A stretch of DNA of 40,199 nt, taken from the IMG/VR virus record IMGVR_UViG_2681813201_000021, one strand, 5' to 3'. Position 1 is the first letter of the stretch. Each line of letters starts with the position of its first letter. Positions 16,439 to 40,199 of the stretch are shown here, in pieces. Position numbers and translations under genes: made by a program. The stretch comes from a virus (Duplodnaviria > Heunggongvirae > Uroviricota > Caudoviricetes). A model generated the notes under the pieces. That model was given only the letters and a program-made list of their open reading frames with translations. It ran no database searches and was not told where the DNA came from.

Positions 16439-16789
16439 ATGCCCCCACGAACCCCAAAAGCCTGCCGTGTTCGCGGCTGCCGCCATACCACCACTGACCC
16501 GTCAGGCTATTGCGAAAGCCACAAAAGCGAAGGCTGGAAGCAATACAAACCTGGACAATCCCGTCATCAGCGCGGCTACGGTTCGAAGTGGGACAGTATC
16601 CGCGCGCGTGTCCTGAAGCGTGACAAAGGCCTGTGTCAGTTATGTCTGCGTGCCGGTGTGGTGCGTGAGGCGAAAACTGTTGACCACATCATCCCTAAAG
16701 CGCATGGCGGCACTGATGCTGACAGTAATCTGCAGAGTCTGTGCTGGCCGTGTCATAAGGCGAAGACGGCCCGTGAACGGTTAAAGTGA
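16439..16789 (+). CDS. HNH endonuclease (terminase-associated)
   Basis: 116 aa; Cys-rich N-terminus and DHIIPKAHGG...N...CWPCH HNH motif; sits upstream of terminase as in HK97-type packaging modules; RBS GAAGGAGA. Confidence 0.85.
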   Translation: MPPRTPKACRVRGCRHTTTDPSGYCESHKSEGWKQYKPGQSRHQRGYGSKWDSIRARVLKRDKGLCQLCLRAGVVREAKTVDHIIPKAHGGTDADSNLQSLCWPCHKAKTARERLK

Positions 16790-23405: not shown

Positions 23406-23886
23406 TTTTCAGCAGCCCGCGGAGATGCGCTTTAACCGCGCCCGTGTCCGGCGGGCGTTTGTCACGATTGGTCAGCGTCATATGCGTGATGCCCGTCGGC
23501 TGGTGATGCGCCGTGCGCGGTCGGCACCGGGTGAAAACCCCGGTTATCAGACCGGACGCCTGGCTCGTTCAATTGGTTACATGGTACCCAGAGCCAGTAA
23601 ACATCGCCCTGGTTTTATGGCACGTATAGCCCCTAACCAGCGTAATGGAGAGGGAAACCGCCGTATCACCGGTGATTTTTATCCGGCTTTTTTGTTCTAT
23701 GGCGTGAGGCGAGGGGCAAAGCGTCGTCGCGGCCATCATCGTGGTGCATCCGGTGGCAGCGGCTGGCGACTGGCTCCACGTAATAACTTCATGGTGGAAA
23801 CTCTTGAAAAGAACCGCAGCTGGACACGCTATTTTCTGGCGCGGGAATTGCGTAAATCACTGAAGCCGGAGCGACGACACAGATGA
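23380..23886 (+). CDS. Tail-component protein (HK97 gp10-like)
   Basis: RBS GGAGG before ATG 23380; position in head-tail joining module. Confidence 0.55.
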   Translation: MTTSFLHVDFQQPAEMRFNRARVRRAFVTIGQRHMRDARRLVMRRARSAPGENPGYQTGRLARSIGYMVPRASKHRPGFMARIAPNQRNGEGNRRITGDFYPAFLFYGVRRGAKRRRGHHRGASGGSGWRLAPRNNFMVETLEKNRSWTRYFLARELRKSLKPERRHR

Positions 23887-32142: not shown

Positions 32143-33187
32143 ATTTCAGCGCCCGACGCTGGCAGAAAATATCAGTATGCTCCGTAACGATTTATTCGCC
32201 AGGCTGGACGTCAGCGACACGCTCCGGCGCATGGATGAAGACGTGCGGGCAAAGGTGTATGCGGCGGCGCTGCATACGGTTTACGGGTACATCGATTATC
32301 TGGCAATGAATATGCTGCCTGACCTGTGCGATGAGTCCTGGCTGGCGCGACATGCTGCGATGAAACGGTGTCCGCGCAAGGGGGCCACGGCTGCCAGCGG
32401 GTATATGCGCTGGGAAGGTGTCAGCGATGGCCTGAAGGTGACTGCCGGGAGCGTGATTCAGCGCGATGACCTGGTTCAGTACACGGCAACTGCCGATGCA
32501 ACCAGCTCCGGTGGTGTCCTGCGTGTGCCGATCACTTGCTCAACTACAGGCGCGGTCGGTAACGCTGACGACGGTACGGCATTAATCCTGGTCACGCCGG
32601 TGAATGGTCTGCCGTCTTCCGGTGTGGCTGACACCCTGACAGGCGGATTTGATACTGAAGAGCTGGAAACGTGGCGCGCCCGCGTCATTGAGCGGTATTA
32701 CTGGACGCCTCAGGGCGGGGCTGACGGGGACTATGTCGTCTGGGCTAAAGAAGTGCCAGGCATTACCCGTGCATGGACATACCGCCACTGGATGGGAACG
32801 GGAACTGTCGGTGTGATGATTGCCAGCAGTGACCTGATTAATCCCATTCCGGAAGAATCAACGGAAACGGCAGCAAGACAACATATCGGGCCACTGGCCC
32901 CGGTGGCAGGCTCTGATTTGTATGTATTCAGGCCGGTGGCACATACGGTGGATTTTCATATCCGCGTGACGCCGGACACACCAGAAATACGGGCTGCCAT
33001 TACCGCGGAGTTGCGTTCGTTCCTGCTGCGTGATGGTTATCCGCAGGGAGAACTGAAGGTGTCACGTATCAGTGAAGCGATTTCCGGTGCGAACGGGGAA
33101 TACAGCCATCAGTTGCTTGCACCGGCGGACAATATCTCCATTGCAAAAAATGAACTGGCGGTACTGGGGACGATTTCATGGACGTGA
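32129..33187 (+). CDS. Baseplate J-like protein (Mu gp47-like)
   Basis: 352 aa; position. Confidence 0.8.
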
Positions 33188-33762
33188 CAAACGATGATTA
33201 CATCCGTCTGTTGTCGGCACTGTTGCCACCCGGTCCGGCGTGGTCAGCCAGAGATCCGGCGATTGCCGGTGCGGCACCGTCATTAACCCGCGTTCATCAG
33301 CGTGCGGATGCCCTGATGCGGGAGCTGGATCCGCGCACCACCACTGAACTGATAAACCGCTGGGAGCGTCTGTGCGGTCTGCCGGATGAATGTATTCCCG
33401 CAGGGACACAGACCCTTCGCCAGCGTCAGCAACGACTGGATGCGAAGGTTAACCTGGCGGGCGGCATCAATGAGGATTTTTACCTTGCACAGCTTGCTGC
33501 CCTGGGCAGACCAGACGCTACCATCACGCGATACGACAAAAGCACGTTCACCTGCTCATCTGCCTGTACTGACGCGGTGAATGCGCCGGAATGGCGGTAT
33601 TACTGGCAGGTCAACATGCCAGCCGCCACCAACACCACCTGGATGACATGTGGCGATCCCTGTGATACCGCGCTGCGTATCTGGGGCGACACCGTCGTCG
33701 AATGTGTGCTTAACAAACTCTCCCCTTCGCATACCTACGTAATTTTTAAATATCCGGAGTAA
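33178..33762 (+). CDS. Tail protein (Mu gp48 / DUF2313, YmfQ-like)
   Basis: 194 aa, precedes tail fibre. Confidence 0.75.
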
Positions 33763-33765
33763 TCC

Positions 33766-34398
33766 ATGCATCGTATAGACACGAAAACCGCGCAGAAGGA
33801 TAAGTTCGGCGCGGGTAAGAACGGTTTTACCCGTGGTAACCCCCAGACTGGCACGCCTGCCACCGATCTGGATGATGACTACTTTGATATGTTGCAGGAA
33901 GAACTCTGCAGCGTGGTGGAGGCATCCGGTGCCAGTCTGGAGAAGGCGCGGCACGACCAGCTGCTTACCGCGCTTCGTGCGCTGCTGTTAAGCCGCAAGA
34001 ATCCGTTTGGCGATATCAAATCGGATGGCACGGTGAAAACGGCTCTCGAAAACCTTGGTTTGGGAGAAGCCAGATATGTCATTCAGCGAGGAGCTAATGC
34101 CAATGGTGCGTGGATACGCTGGTCAGATGGTGCAATAGAAGTCTTTGGAACGGGGGGTTCTAATGATAATGGACTGGCTAAAGTCGTTTATCCAATTGCG
34201 CTACCTAAGCTTTCACGTTTTATCAGCATAGCGGAAAGAATAGGAACGGATTATGGGGGCACATCTAATAACGTTCACGTTTCAATGATCGTGGATGACC
34301 AGGTCACTAATACCGGTTTTTATGTCCGCTGCCAGATGTACGACGGAACACCATCAACAAGTGCTTTTTCCTGGAGGGTTTATTGTGCGCCTGTTTAA
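33766..34398 (+). CDS. Tail fibre protein (constant N-terminus plus currently expressed variable C-terminus)
   Basis: 210 aa; crossover site lies inside at codons for ENLGLGE (34043-34068); RBS GGAG. Confidence 0.8.
34043..34068. other. Invertase crossover site (left), CTCTCGAAAACC TT GGTTTGGGAGAA
   Basis: 26-bp hix/gix-like site; its right half plus core is repeated in inverted orientation at 35648-35673. Confidence 0.75.
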
Positions 34399-34582
34399 TC
34401 CTGTTACTTTGACTGAAGTAATCCCCGGTCTTCATGACGTGACCGGGGCTGTTGAATTACCAGAAGATAACTGGTTTTTTACTGCATCTGAAATCCCTGA
34501 AGGAATGGAAATATCTGTTAACGAGAAGGGAGAACCCATTCTGATTGAGATTAAACCGTCTCAGGAGGAACTGGCCAGATGA
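34385..34582 (+). CDS. Tail fibre assembly protein (short; GTG start)
   Basis: GGAGGG RBS 8 nt before GTG 34385; N-terminal RLFNPVTL typical of Tfa proteins. Confidence 0.5.
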
Positions 34583-35156
34583 CATCTGGCGCGGTGCTGG
34601 TATCTGTTGCCATCACCGCGTCAGTGTAATCCAGCACGGCGTTAAGTCGGGTGTTTTCTGCCTGCGTCAGCTTCCGCCCGGCCTGCAATTTCAGTTGAAT
34701 CAGACTAATGGAAACCATTGCAGCATCAATCAGCGACTGCCGCTGTGTTTCTGCCATGTCTACTGCTGCTCTATGCTGTGCCTCGGTATCCGTCACCCAT
34801 TTCTCACCATCCCATTTATCGTATGGCGTTAACGGGGCGATAGTGGTTGTCTTTTCAGGGTAATCACCCGGAGCTGTGATTTCTTTTGATTCTCCTGTTT
34901 CGGTGCTATAGACGATTTCACCGCGATGGTCTGGCACATATTCCCATGAGTTAAAATCTGCAGAACGGCAAATTGCATAACCAGCTTTATATGAGCCAGG
35001 AGCATCTAAACAGGAACATGCCGGGATACCGACACCCACAGCAAGATATTCAGTTGATGTGGAAATATATTCCCGCGTTTCACCATCATAATTATAAATG
35101 GTAATGTCTCCCGCTTTTATGGCAATGAGTTCGTTATTTAATACGGCTTTATTCAT
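34551..35156 (-). CDS. Tail fibre assembly protein (alternative, in inverted orientation)
   Basis: 201 aa; C-terminal ...[16 protein letters not shown] Tfa signature; convergent with plus-strand tfa. Confidence 0.8.
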   Translation of the reverse strand: MNKAVLNNELIAIKAGDITIYNYDGETREYISTSTEYLAVGVGIPACSCLDAPGSYKAGYAICRSADFNSWEYVPDHRGEIVYSTETGESKEITAPGDYPEKTTTIAPLTPYDKWDGEKWVTDTEAQHRAAVDMAETQRQSLIDAAMVSISLIQLKLQAGRKLTQAENTRLNAVLDYTDAVMATDTSTAPDVIWPVPPETV

Positions 35157-35661
35157 CAGGCAGCCCTCACGATATAATTAAAGGCAATGTTACGAGGTCT
35201 GTTTTCTGTCGCTGTAGGAACAACTCTTGAGACATCCAAATTAGCGTAAATATGACGATCTGTTATAGAAACTGATGACTTACCTGTAGATTCAGCTTTT
35301 ATCACAACGGAATCATACATTCCCTCATCATTCCCAAAAAATGCACCAGAGCCATTGCCAAAAAAATACAGTGCTGATATTTCATGCCTTGCACCAATTG
35401 TCCCCGTGATATTTCTGATTGCATCTCCCTGAGAGTTCAATATAGTTCGGCCCGAATCAACCCCACGCCCGTCATCCCAGCCGCGAATAAATTCACCGCG
35501 TAAATCAGGCAATTTATTTGTCGGGTAAGCCTTTGCCAGTTCCGGGTATTCTTCAGCAGAAAAAGCCGCACCATTGCATTTCAGCCAGCCTGTCGGCGGA
35601 GTGGCGGAAGGCCACGGAACAGGCACACCGACAGGTAATGCAGAGCCTTCTCCCAAACCAA
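35156..35661 (-). CDS. Alternative tail-fibre variable C-terminal segment (no own start; expressed only after inversion)
   Basis: Reads from crossover site: ...VGLGEGSALPVGVPVPWPS...GWLKCNGAAFSAEEYPELAKAYP...NIAFNYIVRAA, typical fibre C-terminal domain; stop overlaps tfa' start (ATGA). Confidence 0.7.
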
Positions 35662-35673
35662 CGTTTATGAAAA
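35648..35673. other. Invertase crossover site (right), minus strand reads TTTTCATAAACG TT GGTTTGGGAGAA
   Basis: Matches hixL at about 20 of 26 positions as recalled from memory; shares 15 identical bp with the left site in inverted orientation. Confidence 0.75.
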
Positions 35674-35727
35674 TGAAGAAATAACAAGCAAATGGCATCA
35701 TTCCTGCTTTTACCAGGGGGATTTAAC

Positions 35728-36282
35728 ATGCTTATTGGCTATGTACGTGTATCAACAAATGACCAGAATACCGATCTACAACGCAATGCGCTGAACTGTG
35801 CAGGGTGTGAGCTGATTTTTGAAGACAAGATAAGCGGTACAAAGTCCGACAGACCAGGACTGAAAAAGCTGCTCAGGACATTATCGGCAGGTGACACGCT
35901 GGTGGTCTGGAAACTGGACCGACTGGGGCGCAGTATGCGGCATCTTGTCGTGCTGGTGGAGGAGTTGCGCGAACGAGGCATCAACTTTCGTAGTCTGACG
36001 GATTCAATTGATACCAGTACCCCAATGGGGCGCTTTTTCTTTCATGTGATGGGTGCCCTGGCTGAAATGGAGCGTGAACTGATTGTTGAACGAACAAAAG
36101 CTGGACTAGAAGCAGCTCGCGCACAGGGACGAATTGGTGGACGTCGCCCCAAACTTACACCAGAACAATGGGAGCAGGCCGGACGATTAATTGCATCAGG
36201 CGTTCCTCGCCAGAAGGTGGCGATCATCTATGATGTTGGTATATCGACACTGTATAAGAAGTTTCCGGTCGGAGATAAATGA
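35728..36282 (+). CDS. pin: Serine DNA invertase (Pin/Gin/Hin/Cin family)
   Basis: MLIGYVRVSTNDQNTDLQRNAL... with catalytic Ser in the YVRVST motif; close to e14 Pin as recalled; C-terminal HTH. Confidence 0.9.
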   Translation: MLIGYVRVSTNDQNTDLQRNALNCAGCELIFEDKISGTKSDRPGLKKLLRTLSAGDTLVVWKLDRLGRSMRHLVVLVEELRERGINFRSLTDSIDTSTPMGRFFFHVMGALAEMERELIVERTKAGLEAARAQGRIGGRRPKLTPEQWEQAGRLIASGVPRQKVAIIYDVGISTLYKKFPVGDK

Positions 36283-36342: not shown

Positions 36343-37161
<819 letters not shown>

Positions 37162-37522
37162 TCATTGCAAGGGCTCACAACCAGTAGTGTTGAGAAAACC
37201 ATCGGAGAAATGAGGCTAAGCCTTTGAATTTACATAGTACAAAAAAGATACTTTTCCTCATAATGTGAGCTAATTTTATGTTTCGTTTGATGATTGGACC
37301 GGTCTCGAAAACCGTAGACACATAGTATGCGTTAATTTATGAACAAACTACTTGTCTGCTGTTTTTCTGTCATTAGTCGTATATAGAATGATTCTCTATG
37401 CCTAACAAAGCATCACCAGTGCTAGATTACGTTGTAGTCACTGTTTAAATATCCAGATAAAACATTTCCTTCTGGGTTGAATGAGTGATAAAGTTTCACC
37501 CATTAGACCCCTTGGAGGAATT

Positions 37523-38956
37523 ATGTCTGAATTTGAAGTGTTGGCACAGCATCTGCTGAAGGAAGCCGAGGCGGAAGAAAAGCTGCGACAGGAAAATGAT
37601 AAAAAGCTTATCGAGAAAGTGCTGGAAATCTATGATCAGAAGTATGTGGCTGAATTACTGAGAAAAGTCGGAAAAAATGAGTGGAGCCGTGAAACCATTA
37701 ACCGCTGGATTAATGGCAAGTGTTTACCAAAATCGTTGACTTCAGTAGAAGAGTCTCTTCTGCGTAAGATGCTACCAGAACCACCTGCAAACCATCCGGA
37801 ATATGCTTTCCGCTTCATTGACTTATTTGCTGGAATTGGAGGGATACGGAAAGGTTTTGAGGCCATTGGAGGCCAGTGTGTTTTTACCAGTGAATGGAAT
37901 AAAGATGCTGTGCGTACATACAAGGCCAACTGGTTTAACGATGAACAGGTGCATAAATTCAATCTCGATATTCGGGAAGTCACGCTGAGTGATAAAACCG
38001 ATGTATTGGAAACGGATGCTTATGCATATATTGATGAGCATGTGCCGGATCATGATGTGCTTCTTGCGGGGTTTCCGTGCCAGCCATTTAGCCTTGCTGG
38101 TGTTAGTAAGAAAAACTCACTTGGTCGTGCGCATGGTTTTGAATGTGAAGCACAAGGAACACTTTTTTTTGACGTGGCACGTATTATACGAGCAAAAAAA
38201 CCGGCAATTTTTGTGCTGGAAAATGTCAAAAATCTGAAGAGCCATGATAAGGGTAAAACTTTCAAAGTCATTATGGAGACCCTTGACGAGCTGGGCTACG
38301 AAGTTGCCGATGCTGCAGAAATGGGAAAAAACGATCCAAAGATTATCGATGGGAAGCATTTTTTGCCTCAGCATCGTGAACGCATTGTTCTGGTCGGATT
38401 TAGACGAGATCTGAATATTCACAAGGGGTTTACCTTGCGTGATATCAGTCGTTTTTATCCGGAACACCGCCCATCATTTGGTGAATTGCTGGAGCCTGTA
38501 GTCGACAGTAAATATATACTTACGCCAAAACTATGGGAGTACCTTTATAACTACGCCAAAAAGCATGCAGCCAAGGGGAATGGTTTTGGCTTTGGGTTGG
38601 TCAATCCTGAGAATAAGGAAAGCATTGCACGCACACTTTCTGCCAGATATCACAAAGACGGATCAGAAATTCTTATTGATCGTGGTTGGGATATGGCAAC
38701 GGGAGAGGCTGACTTTATGAATGAGAGTAATCAGGCTCGTCGACCACGCAGGCTGACTCCCCGAGAGTGCGCACGCCTTATGGGATTTGAAAAACCTGGA
38801 GGGAAACCATTCCGTATTCCGGTTTCAGATACTCAGTCATATCGGCAGTTCGGTAACTCAGTTGTGGTGCCAGTATTTGAAGCTGTTGCCAGACTTCTGG
38901 AACCCTATATCCTCAAAGCTGTTTCTGCTGATGCTGGTAAGACTGGGCAGCCTTGA
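37523..38956 (+). CDS. ecoRIIM: DNA cytosine-5 methyltransferase, M.EcoRII-like (CCWGG family)
   Basis: Motifs [10 protein letters not shown] (I), GFPCQPFS (IV), ENVKNL (VI); sequence closely follows M.EcoRII/Dcm as recalled; RBS GGAGG before ATG 37523. Confidence 0.9.
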
Positions 38957-38962
38957 GAACAT

Positions 38963-38985
38963 CTCCCGGCCTTTTAAGCCGGGAG
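38963..38985. terminator. Bidirectional hairpin between convergent M and R genes
   Basis: CTCCCGGC cttttaa GCCGGGAG. Confidence 0.6.
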
Positions 38986-38990
38986 TCAGC

Positions 38991-40199
38991 CTATGATAGT
39001 TCAGCGTAAAGCTCTATCAGCTCAGTAATGAATGCTCCGAGCGTTATTAATTCTTCTCTAACTGCTTCTGGGTATTTTTTATGTAAAGTTGATGGTACAA
39101 CGAGTCTGACACCAGCATCTTTCATTTCTCGGTATTGTGCTGAAGAAACACCTTCTTGCAGTGTAAATAAATGTACCTGATGGATTTTATCTGCTTCATT
39201 CAGTATCTGACGCCAGCGATCTTTGCAGGTGGTCTTTACTGCCAGCATACGTAAGTTTTCTACAGGAAATTCAACGTTATGATATGCCTCTGCTGAAGGA
39301 AACAGGAAATCTGGTTTTTTATTACCTTCAGTAACTGCCTGAGTGGAGAAATGCCGTAGTCCGTGCTCGATAAAAAGCTTCTCTAGGTGAAGTTCAAGTG
39401 ATTTGCCTGCCCTTGATTTACGTCGATTACTGACAGAGTTGGCTAATGCAATAAACTCATCTACAGAATCGAATCCTTTCTTAATAATATCAAGAACATG
39501 TAATTCCTCGACGAGTAGAAAAATATCATACTCGACACGCCGACGGTCAATCAGTTGCTCATCTGGATCCTTGGAGTTTTTAGCATAATGGCCAGCAGCA
39601 TATTGAATAATTTCGTTTCCAGAAGGAAAACGCTTCTTCCAGTCTTCAGGAATAACATATTTATGATTTACTGGAGTTTGCTGAAGAGACAATCCGCCCA
39701 AAATTTGTCCGGCAGGGCCGGAAATTAGGGTTCCAGGTATGATTTCGCCAATAGCAGACTCGATGATATCCTCTTCATCGGGATTGACGCAGACCCATAT
39801 ATCTACCTCGGAACAGTCAGTGTTCTGTTCGTTTAACCTGAAAGCAAGAATTGTGAGGGCTCCTGTATTTTCAGGGTTCTGTAATGGACTTCCTCTCCCC
39901 CAGCGCGTAATTCTTTTTTCGTTTCGGGTCTTACCAAAATAACGGTTGTTGTAATAAATTGCGCGTGCTTGGGTATCAGGGCAATCATGGGATGATACAT
40001 GCGCAGTAAGGAAGACTGAAGGGTTCAGTTCGCGAGTATGATTGATAGATGGAAAAAGCTTTTCAACGATATTTGAGGGGATATAAAGTCCGACCTGATG
40101 GCCACCTGTTGCGCCTGTGTCGTTTGCAGAAAGGCGTTTGATGTAGATAAAGTAATTCCCGCTTGCGATATCAAGCAGCCAGTTATGAAAAACCGACAT
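38991..40199 (-). CDS. ecoRIIR: Type IIE restriction endonuclease, EcoRII-like
   Basis: 402 aa; N-terminus MSVFHNWLL...YIKRLSANDTGATGGHQVGLYIP and most of the length follow R.EcoRII as recalled; start codon is the last 3 nt of the window. Confidence 0.9.
   Translation of the reverse strand: MSVFHNWLLDIASGNYFIYIKRLSANDTGATGGHQVGLYIPSNIVEKLFPSINHTRELNPSVFLTAHVSSHDCPDTQARAIYYNNRYFGKTRNEKRITRWGRGSPLQNPENTGALTILAFRLNEQNTDCSEVDIWVCVNPDEEDIIESAIGEIIPGTLISGPAGQILGGLSLQQTPVNHKYVIPEDWKKRFPSGNEIIQYAAGHYAKNSKDPDEQLIDRRRVEYDIFLLVEELHVLDIIKKGFDSVDEFIALANSVSNRRKSRAGKSLELHLEKLFIEHGLRHFSTQAVTEGNKKPDFLFPSAEAYHNVEFPVENLRMLAVKTTCKDRWRQILNEADKIHQVHLFTLQEGVSSAQYREMKDAGVRLVVPSTLHKKYPEAVREELITLGAFITELIELYAELS

Follow-up and report, generated by a model that had tools for sequence, protein, structure and literature searches.

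The 40,199-nt stretch of viral DNA analysed here (IMG/VR record IMGVR_UViG_2681813201_000021, hereafter the window) carries a short tail-fibre ORF and an oppositely oriented second fibre cassette next to a serine invertase, which raises the question of whether the DNA between fibre and invertase is an invertible segment exchanging the fibre tips, to which inversion system it belongs, and what such a switch would do for the phage or for its lysogen. The analysis identifies the locus as the P-inversion system of e14, Pin/e14 being a member of the Hin/Gin/Cin/Pin inversion family, and the e14-type Pin switch is already known and characterised in Escherichia coli K-12. The features discussed below are the following, in coordinates of the window:

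33766-34054, plus strand: constant part of the fibre (Sc), outside the segment; the full expressed ORF spans 33766-34398 (210 aa)
34043-34068: left 26-bp crossover site (= e14 pixL), CTCTCGAAAACC TT GGTTTGGGAGAA, with core TT at 34055-34056
34057-35659: invertible segment, 1603 bp between core dinucleotides
34057-34398, plus strand: variable tip A, GLGE plus 109 aa, currently fused to the constant part
34385-34582, plus strand: orf65, 65 aa, partner of tip A by position
34551-35156, minus strand: tfa of cassette B, encoding a TfaE-like tail-fibre assembly protein of 201 aa
35156-35659, minus strand: variable tip B, StfE-like with a phage tail Collar domain, at present not joined to the constant part
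35648-35673: right 26-bp crossover site (= e14 pixR), plus strand TTCTCCCAAACC AA CGTTTATGAAAA, with core at 35660-35661
35662-35701, minus strand: pin-proximal leader, outside the segment, with start codons at 35701 and 35698, encoding MMPFACYFFIFINV
35728-36282, plus strand: pin, an intact serine DNA invertase of 184 aa
35746-35817, plus strand: predicted recombinational enhancer (Fis-binding, sis-like), inside the 5′ end of pin

The gene order of the e14 P segment, i.e., ymfQ, fibre constant part, invertible segment and pinE, is found here with orthologous invertase and sites, and it is common to K-12 and many RefSeq genomes; in RefSeq relatives the system is annotated as pinE flanked by tail genes. 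The fibre ORF follows a Mu gp48-like baseplate gene (33178-33762) that corresponds to YmfQ and is 96.9% identical to its K-12 counterpart, and the upstream baseplate genes as a group resemble Mu gp46/47/48. The window also holds an integrase, a lambdoid early region, terminase, portal, capsid, sheath and tape measure genes along with this Mu-like baseplate, a gene set that points to an apparently complete, e14/SfV-like prophage with a contractile tail. The prophage resembles the myovirus-tailed SfI/SfV/e14 group. Its downstream cargo consists of a GIY-YIG protein and an EcoRII-type restriction-modification pair, at the place where K-12 e14 has mcrA.

The original prediction placed two inverted, hix/gix-like 26-bp sites sharing 15 identical bp at the ends of the segment, and both were found exactly where it had put them. 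Written as its reverse complement, the right site reads TTTTCATAAACG TT GGTTTGGGAGAA; left and right sites agree at 21 of 26 positions, with the central TT in both, and the identical half-sites point into the segment while the outer half-sites differ. The window contains exactly two copies of the 15-mer TTGGTTTGGGAGAAG, one on either strand, and a repeat finder returned longest arms of 20 nt with 95% complementarity, 1577 nt apart. Each site is identical to its counterpart in K-12 e14 (L005, positions 3779-3804 for the left and 5606-5631 for the right), and both contain TTGGTTTGGGAGAAGG, the reported inversion repeat of the 1797-bp e14 P segment (PMC12529663). In a comparison of family sites that covered P1 cix and Mu gix, the half-sites fit the consensus TTnTCnnAAACC, which was derived from P1 cix, Mu gix and these sites and is common to all of them, and the pair has the form typical of the family, namely two 26-bp imperfect palindromes that are inverted relative to each other and have the same 2-bp core. 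A 15-nt inverted repeat is by itself unremarkable in 40 kb, since an exact inverted repeat of at least 15 nt turned up in 15 of 30 dinucleotide-shuffled versions of the whole window; when the 2.6-kb region was shuffled, 5 of 500 versions had one. The significance of the sites therefore comes from their position, the reading frame, the fit to the consensus and the identity to the e14 sites. Additional crossover sites of a Min- or shufflon-like kind were considered and rejected, as only two sites in the window match, the one-mismatch AAACCNNGGTTT at 23535 being at chance level.

The left core falls in the Leu codon of ...ENLGLGE, and the inner half-site therefore encodes GLGE at both ends of the segment, so that either orientation yields a complete fibre and the two fibres differ in their C-terminal tip. 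This in-frame fusion of ENLGLGE to either variable C-terminus, which had been proposed from the position of the sites, was borne out by in-silico inversion of 34057-35659: the 210-aa ORF became an in-frame ORF of 264 aa having the same first 101 residues (...ENLGLGE) and a Collar-domain C-terminus, with tfa directly 3′ of the fused fibre via an ATGA overlap. Neither cassette is interrupted or shifted out of frame. Between cores the window has 1603 bp and K-12 e14 has 1825 bp, which makes the segment 222 bp shorter here.

Constant and variable parts of the fibre differ sharply in their relation to K-12. The first 101 residues of the constant part are identical to K-12 StfP at 99 of 101 positions, and matches to PHROG tail-fibre families cover residues 1-108 of the 210-aa fibre. 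Tip A, in contrast, is not significantly similar to that of K-12 StfP (E=0.53); it covers 79 of the 84 profile positions of the Pfam family Gp53-like_C (PF21882) with E=0.0024 and 18.8 bits, below the cut-off of 24.9. Tip B matches the Pfam Collar domain (1.2e-15) and shares 57% identity with the StfE tip of K-12, the first ~60 and last ~15 residues being identical and the middle ~75 residues diverging. Its partner, the 201-aa Tfa, matches Pfam Caudo_TAP (7e-30) and is 88% identical to K-12 TfaE, which is the one element of the K-12 cassette content (StfP tip with TfaP; StfE tip with TfaE) that is conserved here. Relative to K-12, both tips are allelic variants, and the same cassette alleles are present in other E. 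coli genomes.

The minus-strand pair had been described as silent. A Collar-domain tip with a Caudo_TAP Tfa is indeed encoded there; the tip, however, sits in an ORF with start codons of its own outside the segment, the stfE-type ORF at 35156-35701 (181 aa, minus strand), in which the leader MMPFACYFFIFINV continues in frame into the tip on the pin side of the segment, in either orientation. RefSeq annotates this pin-proximal ORF as a CDS in relatives with either orientation, and its K-12 counterparts StfE and StfE2 have been described (PMC12529663).

The two alternative variable-region/tfa pairs of the original prediction are there by position, with the qualification that the partner of tip A is not a recognisable Tfa: orf65 lacks the Caudo_TAP domain, having no Pfam match at all, and lacks profile similarity to TfaE or TfaP, so that "two tfa pairs" is true only by position. 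In direct comparison orf65 had no match to TfaP, and hhalign gave a probability of 0.2% against the TfaE-like protein of the window and K-12 TfaP. Its AF2 model is small and beta-rich (pLDDT 86.8), and a Foldseek search of the PDB with this model found no significant fold match (best E 0.99). On these three grounds (Pfam, hhalign and PDB fold), orf65 was rejected as a demonstrable Tfa. A truncated TfaP was rejected as well, since DNA homology to K-12 starts only at ~34573, antisense of the tfaE 3′ end, and a truncation is also contradicted by the consistent length of the homologues, of which 141 with 57-86 aa and invariant motifs were found across several genera of Enterobacterales. The protein matches PHROG 5400, whose function is unannotated, at 2.6e-23, and weakly PHROG 188 (3.6e-4). 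The family thus indicates that orf65 is a member of a conserved group of short proteins, not a truncation.

The invertase beside the segment had been said to resemble e14 Pin closely, and it is identical to K-12 PinE at 176 of 184 positions (95.7%). It has the size (~180-190 aa) and the layout usual in the subfamily, an N-terminal catalytic domain (Pfam Resolvase, 1.3e-51, residues 3-135) and a C-terminal HTH (HTH_7, 3.9e-13, residues 138-180), matches the PHROG "DNA invertase" (1e-97) and aligns over its full length with the Gin structure 3UJ3 (E=1e-95). The catalytic Ser9 is present, and MLIGYVRVSTNDQ aligns one to one with Gin (conserved YxRVS motif); 3UJ3 itself carries Ala at residue 9 where Pin has Ser. 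Inside the 5′ end of pin, the usual place of the Fis-dependent enhancer in invertase genes of this subfamily, a motif scan found two 15-mers resembling the Fis core (G-N13-C) at 35749-35763 and 35798-35812, 49 bp apart. The stretch around them, coding nucleotides 19-90 of pin, occupies the positions at which P1 cin has its annotated enhancer and is identical to that enhancer at 55 of 72 positions, to the Mu gin stretch at 55 of 72 and to K-12 pinE at 66 of 72; since these nucleotides also encode protein, which confounds conservation, we treat this element as a predicted enhancer.

Comparison of natural genomes bears on inversion directly. CP178707 and CP116044 (L001 and L003) carry the same cassette pair, and their 1594-nt segments are identical at 1576 of 1594 positions (98.9%) only when one of them is read as its reverse complement. 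Since the flanking DNA is colinear and the outer half-sites have stayed in place, the breakpoints lie inside the shared TT+GGTTTGGGAGAA. Among complete E. coli genomes with at least 80% query coverage, three have the arrangement of the window and six the arrangement obtained by in-silico inversion. Tip A adjoins the constant part in 5 genomes and pin in 70, a count that is biased and gives no ratio, since many carriers of tip A have a different constant region. In K-12, both orientations of the P segment coexist in clonal cultures (PMC4272514), and the e14 repeats invert under PinE and PinQ, as determined by qPCR and sequencing (PMC12529663). The two orientations among relatives thus indicate that e14-type segments invert in nature, and the copy in the window, assembled in one orientation, would be expected to flip in the same way. 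The original prediction of a Pin-type invertible tail-fibre segment is accordingly supported by the e14-identical sites, by the near-identity of the invertase to PinE and by the relatives with both orientations.

Two crossover sites, frames kept open on either side, an intact invertase, identity with an invertible K-12 element and the occurrence of both natural orientations lead us to regard the locus, with high confidence, as a P-inversion system that belongs to an e14/SfV-like prophage and swaps its fibre tips. In the mechanism that we propose, Pin dimers would bind both 26-bp sites and synapse on the Fis-bound enhancer, Fis activating Pin from the predicted element inside the pin 5′ end by analogy with Hin, Gin and Cin; the general Hin/Gin/Cin/Pin mechanism has been reviewed (PMC3798978). 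Pin would then cut both sites at the central TT, half of the tetramer would rotate by 180 degrees, and religation would leave the 1603 bp between the cores inverted. The baseplate-proximal constant part (residues 1-97) is located outside the segment. The present orientation encodes a 210-aa fibre with the weakly gp53-like tip A, together with orf65, and the flipped orientation a 264-aa fibre with the Collar-domain tip B, together with a canonical Tfa. If the analogy with the G segment of Mu and the C segment of P1 holds, the exchange of tips would act as a host-range switch, and a lysogen population should release two types of particles differing in receptor specificity; a host-range role of the virion is plausible given that the prophage is apparently complete.

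Other explanations of the locus fare less well. The inverted repeat could be a product of chance, with convergent ORFs unconnected with recombination, as might be argued from the shuffled windows and from an unrelated 16-nt inverted pair at 16705/31232. This repeat, however, flanks convergent fibre cassettes beside an invertase, keeps the frame on both sides, matches the half-site consensus and is identical to the validated e14 sites, and the inversion breakpoints of the relatives map to it; the comparative data refute the chance reading, to which we give practically no credence. It is also very unlikely that the architecture was inherited as a frozen relic whose segment no longer inverts and of which one cassette is an unused remnant. 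The single orientation of the assembled sequence would be in line with such a relic, as would the length of orf65, much shorter than K-12 TfaP, and the shorter segment. The Pin ORF, on the other hand, is full length and has its catalytic serine, both sites equal functional K-12 sites with matching cores, neither cassette is closed or out of frame, orf65 belongs to a conserved short family, and close relatives occur in both orientations; moreover, other Pin-type invertases, encoded at separate loci, are able to work in trans in K-12 (PMC12529663).

A further alternative concerns the function of the switch rather than its existence, i.e., that it serves, instead of or besides host-range variation, as a recombinase-activated anti-phage device of the lysogen. 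The MMPFACYFFIFINV-GLGE leader is at present attached to tip B and would be attached to tip A after inversion, and it would then be the chimera of leader and gp53-like tip that blocks adsorption. In favour of this idea, the window has the stfE-type ORF, whose ATGs lie outside the segment and which fits the frame of either tip, and the annotation of relatives includes it in both orientations; for e14, a 2025 paper reports that P inversion creates StfE2, that StfE2 reduced the adsorption of T2 and that inversion became more frequent during infection (PMC12529663); tip A is weakly gp53-like, as is the active part of StfE2. Against this stand the absence of significant similarity between tip A and the K-12 StfP tip that forms StfE2, a published mechanism based on over-expression and docking (PMC12529663), and a promoter scan that found no site for the leftward ORF, the scan being a simple and uninformative one that returned no sigma-70-like promoter near either pin or the leader ORF. 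The prophage also looks intact, and a virion function is thus the simpler reading. Because the sequences of tip A and the StfP tip are unrelated, the StfE2 phenotype of K-12 is not transferable to this locus. Defence therefore ranks as a minor rival, not exclusive of the host-range role, and we consider it improbable as an account of the switch. Also less likely than not is the possibility that orf65, a member of a widely conserved family, replaces the canonical Tfa as a tip-specific assembly or adhesin partner for this type of fibre tip, and/or that the leader ORF gives a receptor-masking defence with a specificity unlike that of StfE2.

Set beside known inversion systems, tip exchange by P inversion has its closest parallel in the K-12 e14 P segment (stfP-tfaP-tfaE-stfE-pinE), with the same sites, gene order and pin-proximal leader ORF; there, a 137-aa TfaP follows the StfP tip, whereas here the 65-aa orf65 follows the unrelated tip A, and K-12 e14 is defective while the present prophage looks complete. 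The G segment of Mu with Gin has the same layout (Sc | Sv-U / U′-Sv′ | invertase) with convergent cassettes and the same half-site consensus, but the core is TC in gix and TT here, the G segment is ~3 kb with much longer fibres, and in Mu each of the two cassettes has a canonical Tfa (U, U′), as only cassette B does here. The C segment of P1 with Cin shares the TT core and an inner half-site identical at 10 of 12 positions (GGTTTAAGAGAA versus GGTTTGGGAGAA); it is 4.2 kb long and, unlike the present locus, has cixL overlapping the 3′ end of cin. Hin with the H segment of Salmonella and Min of p15B belong to the same invertase subfamily and follow the same Fis/enhancer logic (PMC3798978), although Hin flips a promoter where the system described here exchanges protein C-termini, and Min and the shufflons use more than two sites where the window has two only.

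As a textbook Pin/e14 switch, the locus matters little beyond its correct annotation. It does, however, combine non-K-12 tip cassettes, one of them paired with the small and conserved orf65, with an apparently complete e14/SfV-like prophage, in which host-range switching by P inversion could be tested, unlike with the defective e14 of K-12.

Immediately behind the variable fibre C-terminus that is currently expressed (tip A, 34057-34398, +), the window carries a short ORF that begins 14 nt before the end of the fibre gene, so that it overlaps the stop.

Features discussed here (window coordinates, strand, description)
1-1164, -, tyrosine integrase (387 aa), first gene of the window
34385-34582, +, 65-aa ORF
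35156-35701, -, ORF holding the non-expressed tip (tip B)
36343-37116, -, LEM-3-like GIY-YIG protein
37481-38956, +, C5-cytosine DNA methyltransferase with DNA_meth_N
38991-40199, -, EcoRII-type restriction endonuclease

Judged by its position, the 65-aa ORF partners tip A of the fibre. It belongs to a family of small conserved proteins (57-86 aa) with members in E. coli, Enterobacter, Salmonella, Cronobacter, Yersinia, Hafnia and Kosakonia, in which the motifs RLFNP, ELPxDNWFF and GEP are invariant. No Pfam domain was identified in it, and its AF2 model is confident and beta-rich, with no fold match in the PDB.

The start of the ORF holding tip B lies beyond the invertible segment and encodes a hydrophobic leader of 14 aa (MMPFACYFFIFINV), which would join whichever tip faces it in frame. 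This ORF corresponds to stfE/StfE2 of K-12, for which a recent paper claims a block of T2 phage adsorption (PMC12529663).

To the right of the serine invertase gene pin, cargo genes occupy 36343-40199 (GIY-YIG, methyltransferase and EcoRII-type genes), a position held by mcrA in the cryptic prophage e14 of K-12, and this prophage end looks like a defence-gene hotspot. The ORF at 7457-8398 contains, at 7745-7867, a tandem array of five to six 15-bp iterons (TCAAAATCTGACNNN), an arrangement typical of lambdoid phages, whose replication origin is embedded in the initiator gene. There is a related copy at 2097-2128. In the early region, an inverted repeat spans 4566-4654, its two 25-nt arms being 84% complementary and 39 nt apart.

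In the closest relative (CP098192; L007 11911-13119), the homologous prophage adjoins the tRNA-Thr downstream of proA. This is where the serotype-converting Shigella phages SfI/SfV attach, whereas K-12 e14 uses the icd site. The fibre locus of this relative (NZ_CP098192; L007 44428-45770) is degraded, with a truncated constant part, an IS1 nearby and no pin. Degradation is also seen in NZ_CM128595 (L004 3067-3588), where the fibre is an annotated pseudogene missing its C-terminus. The fibre switch therefore decays in some lineages.
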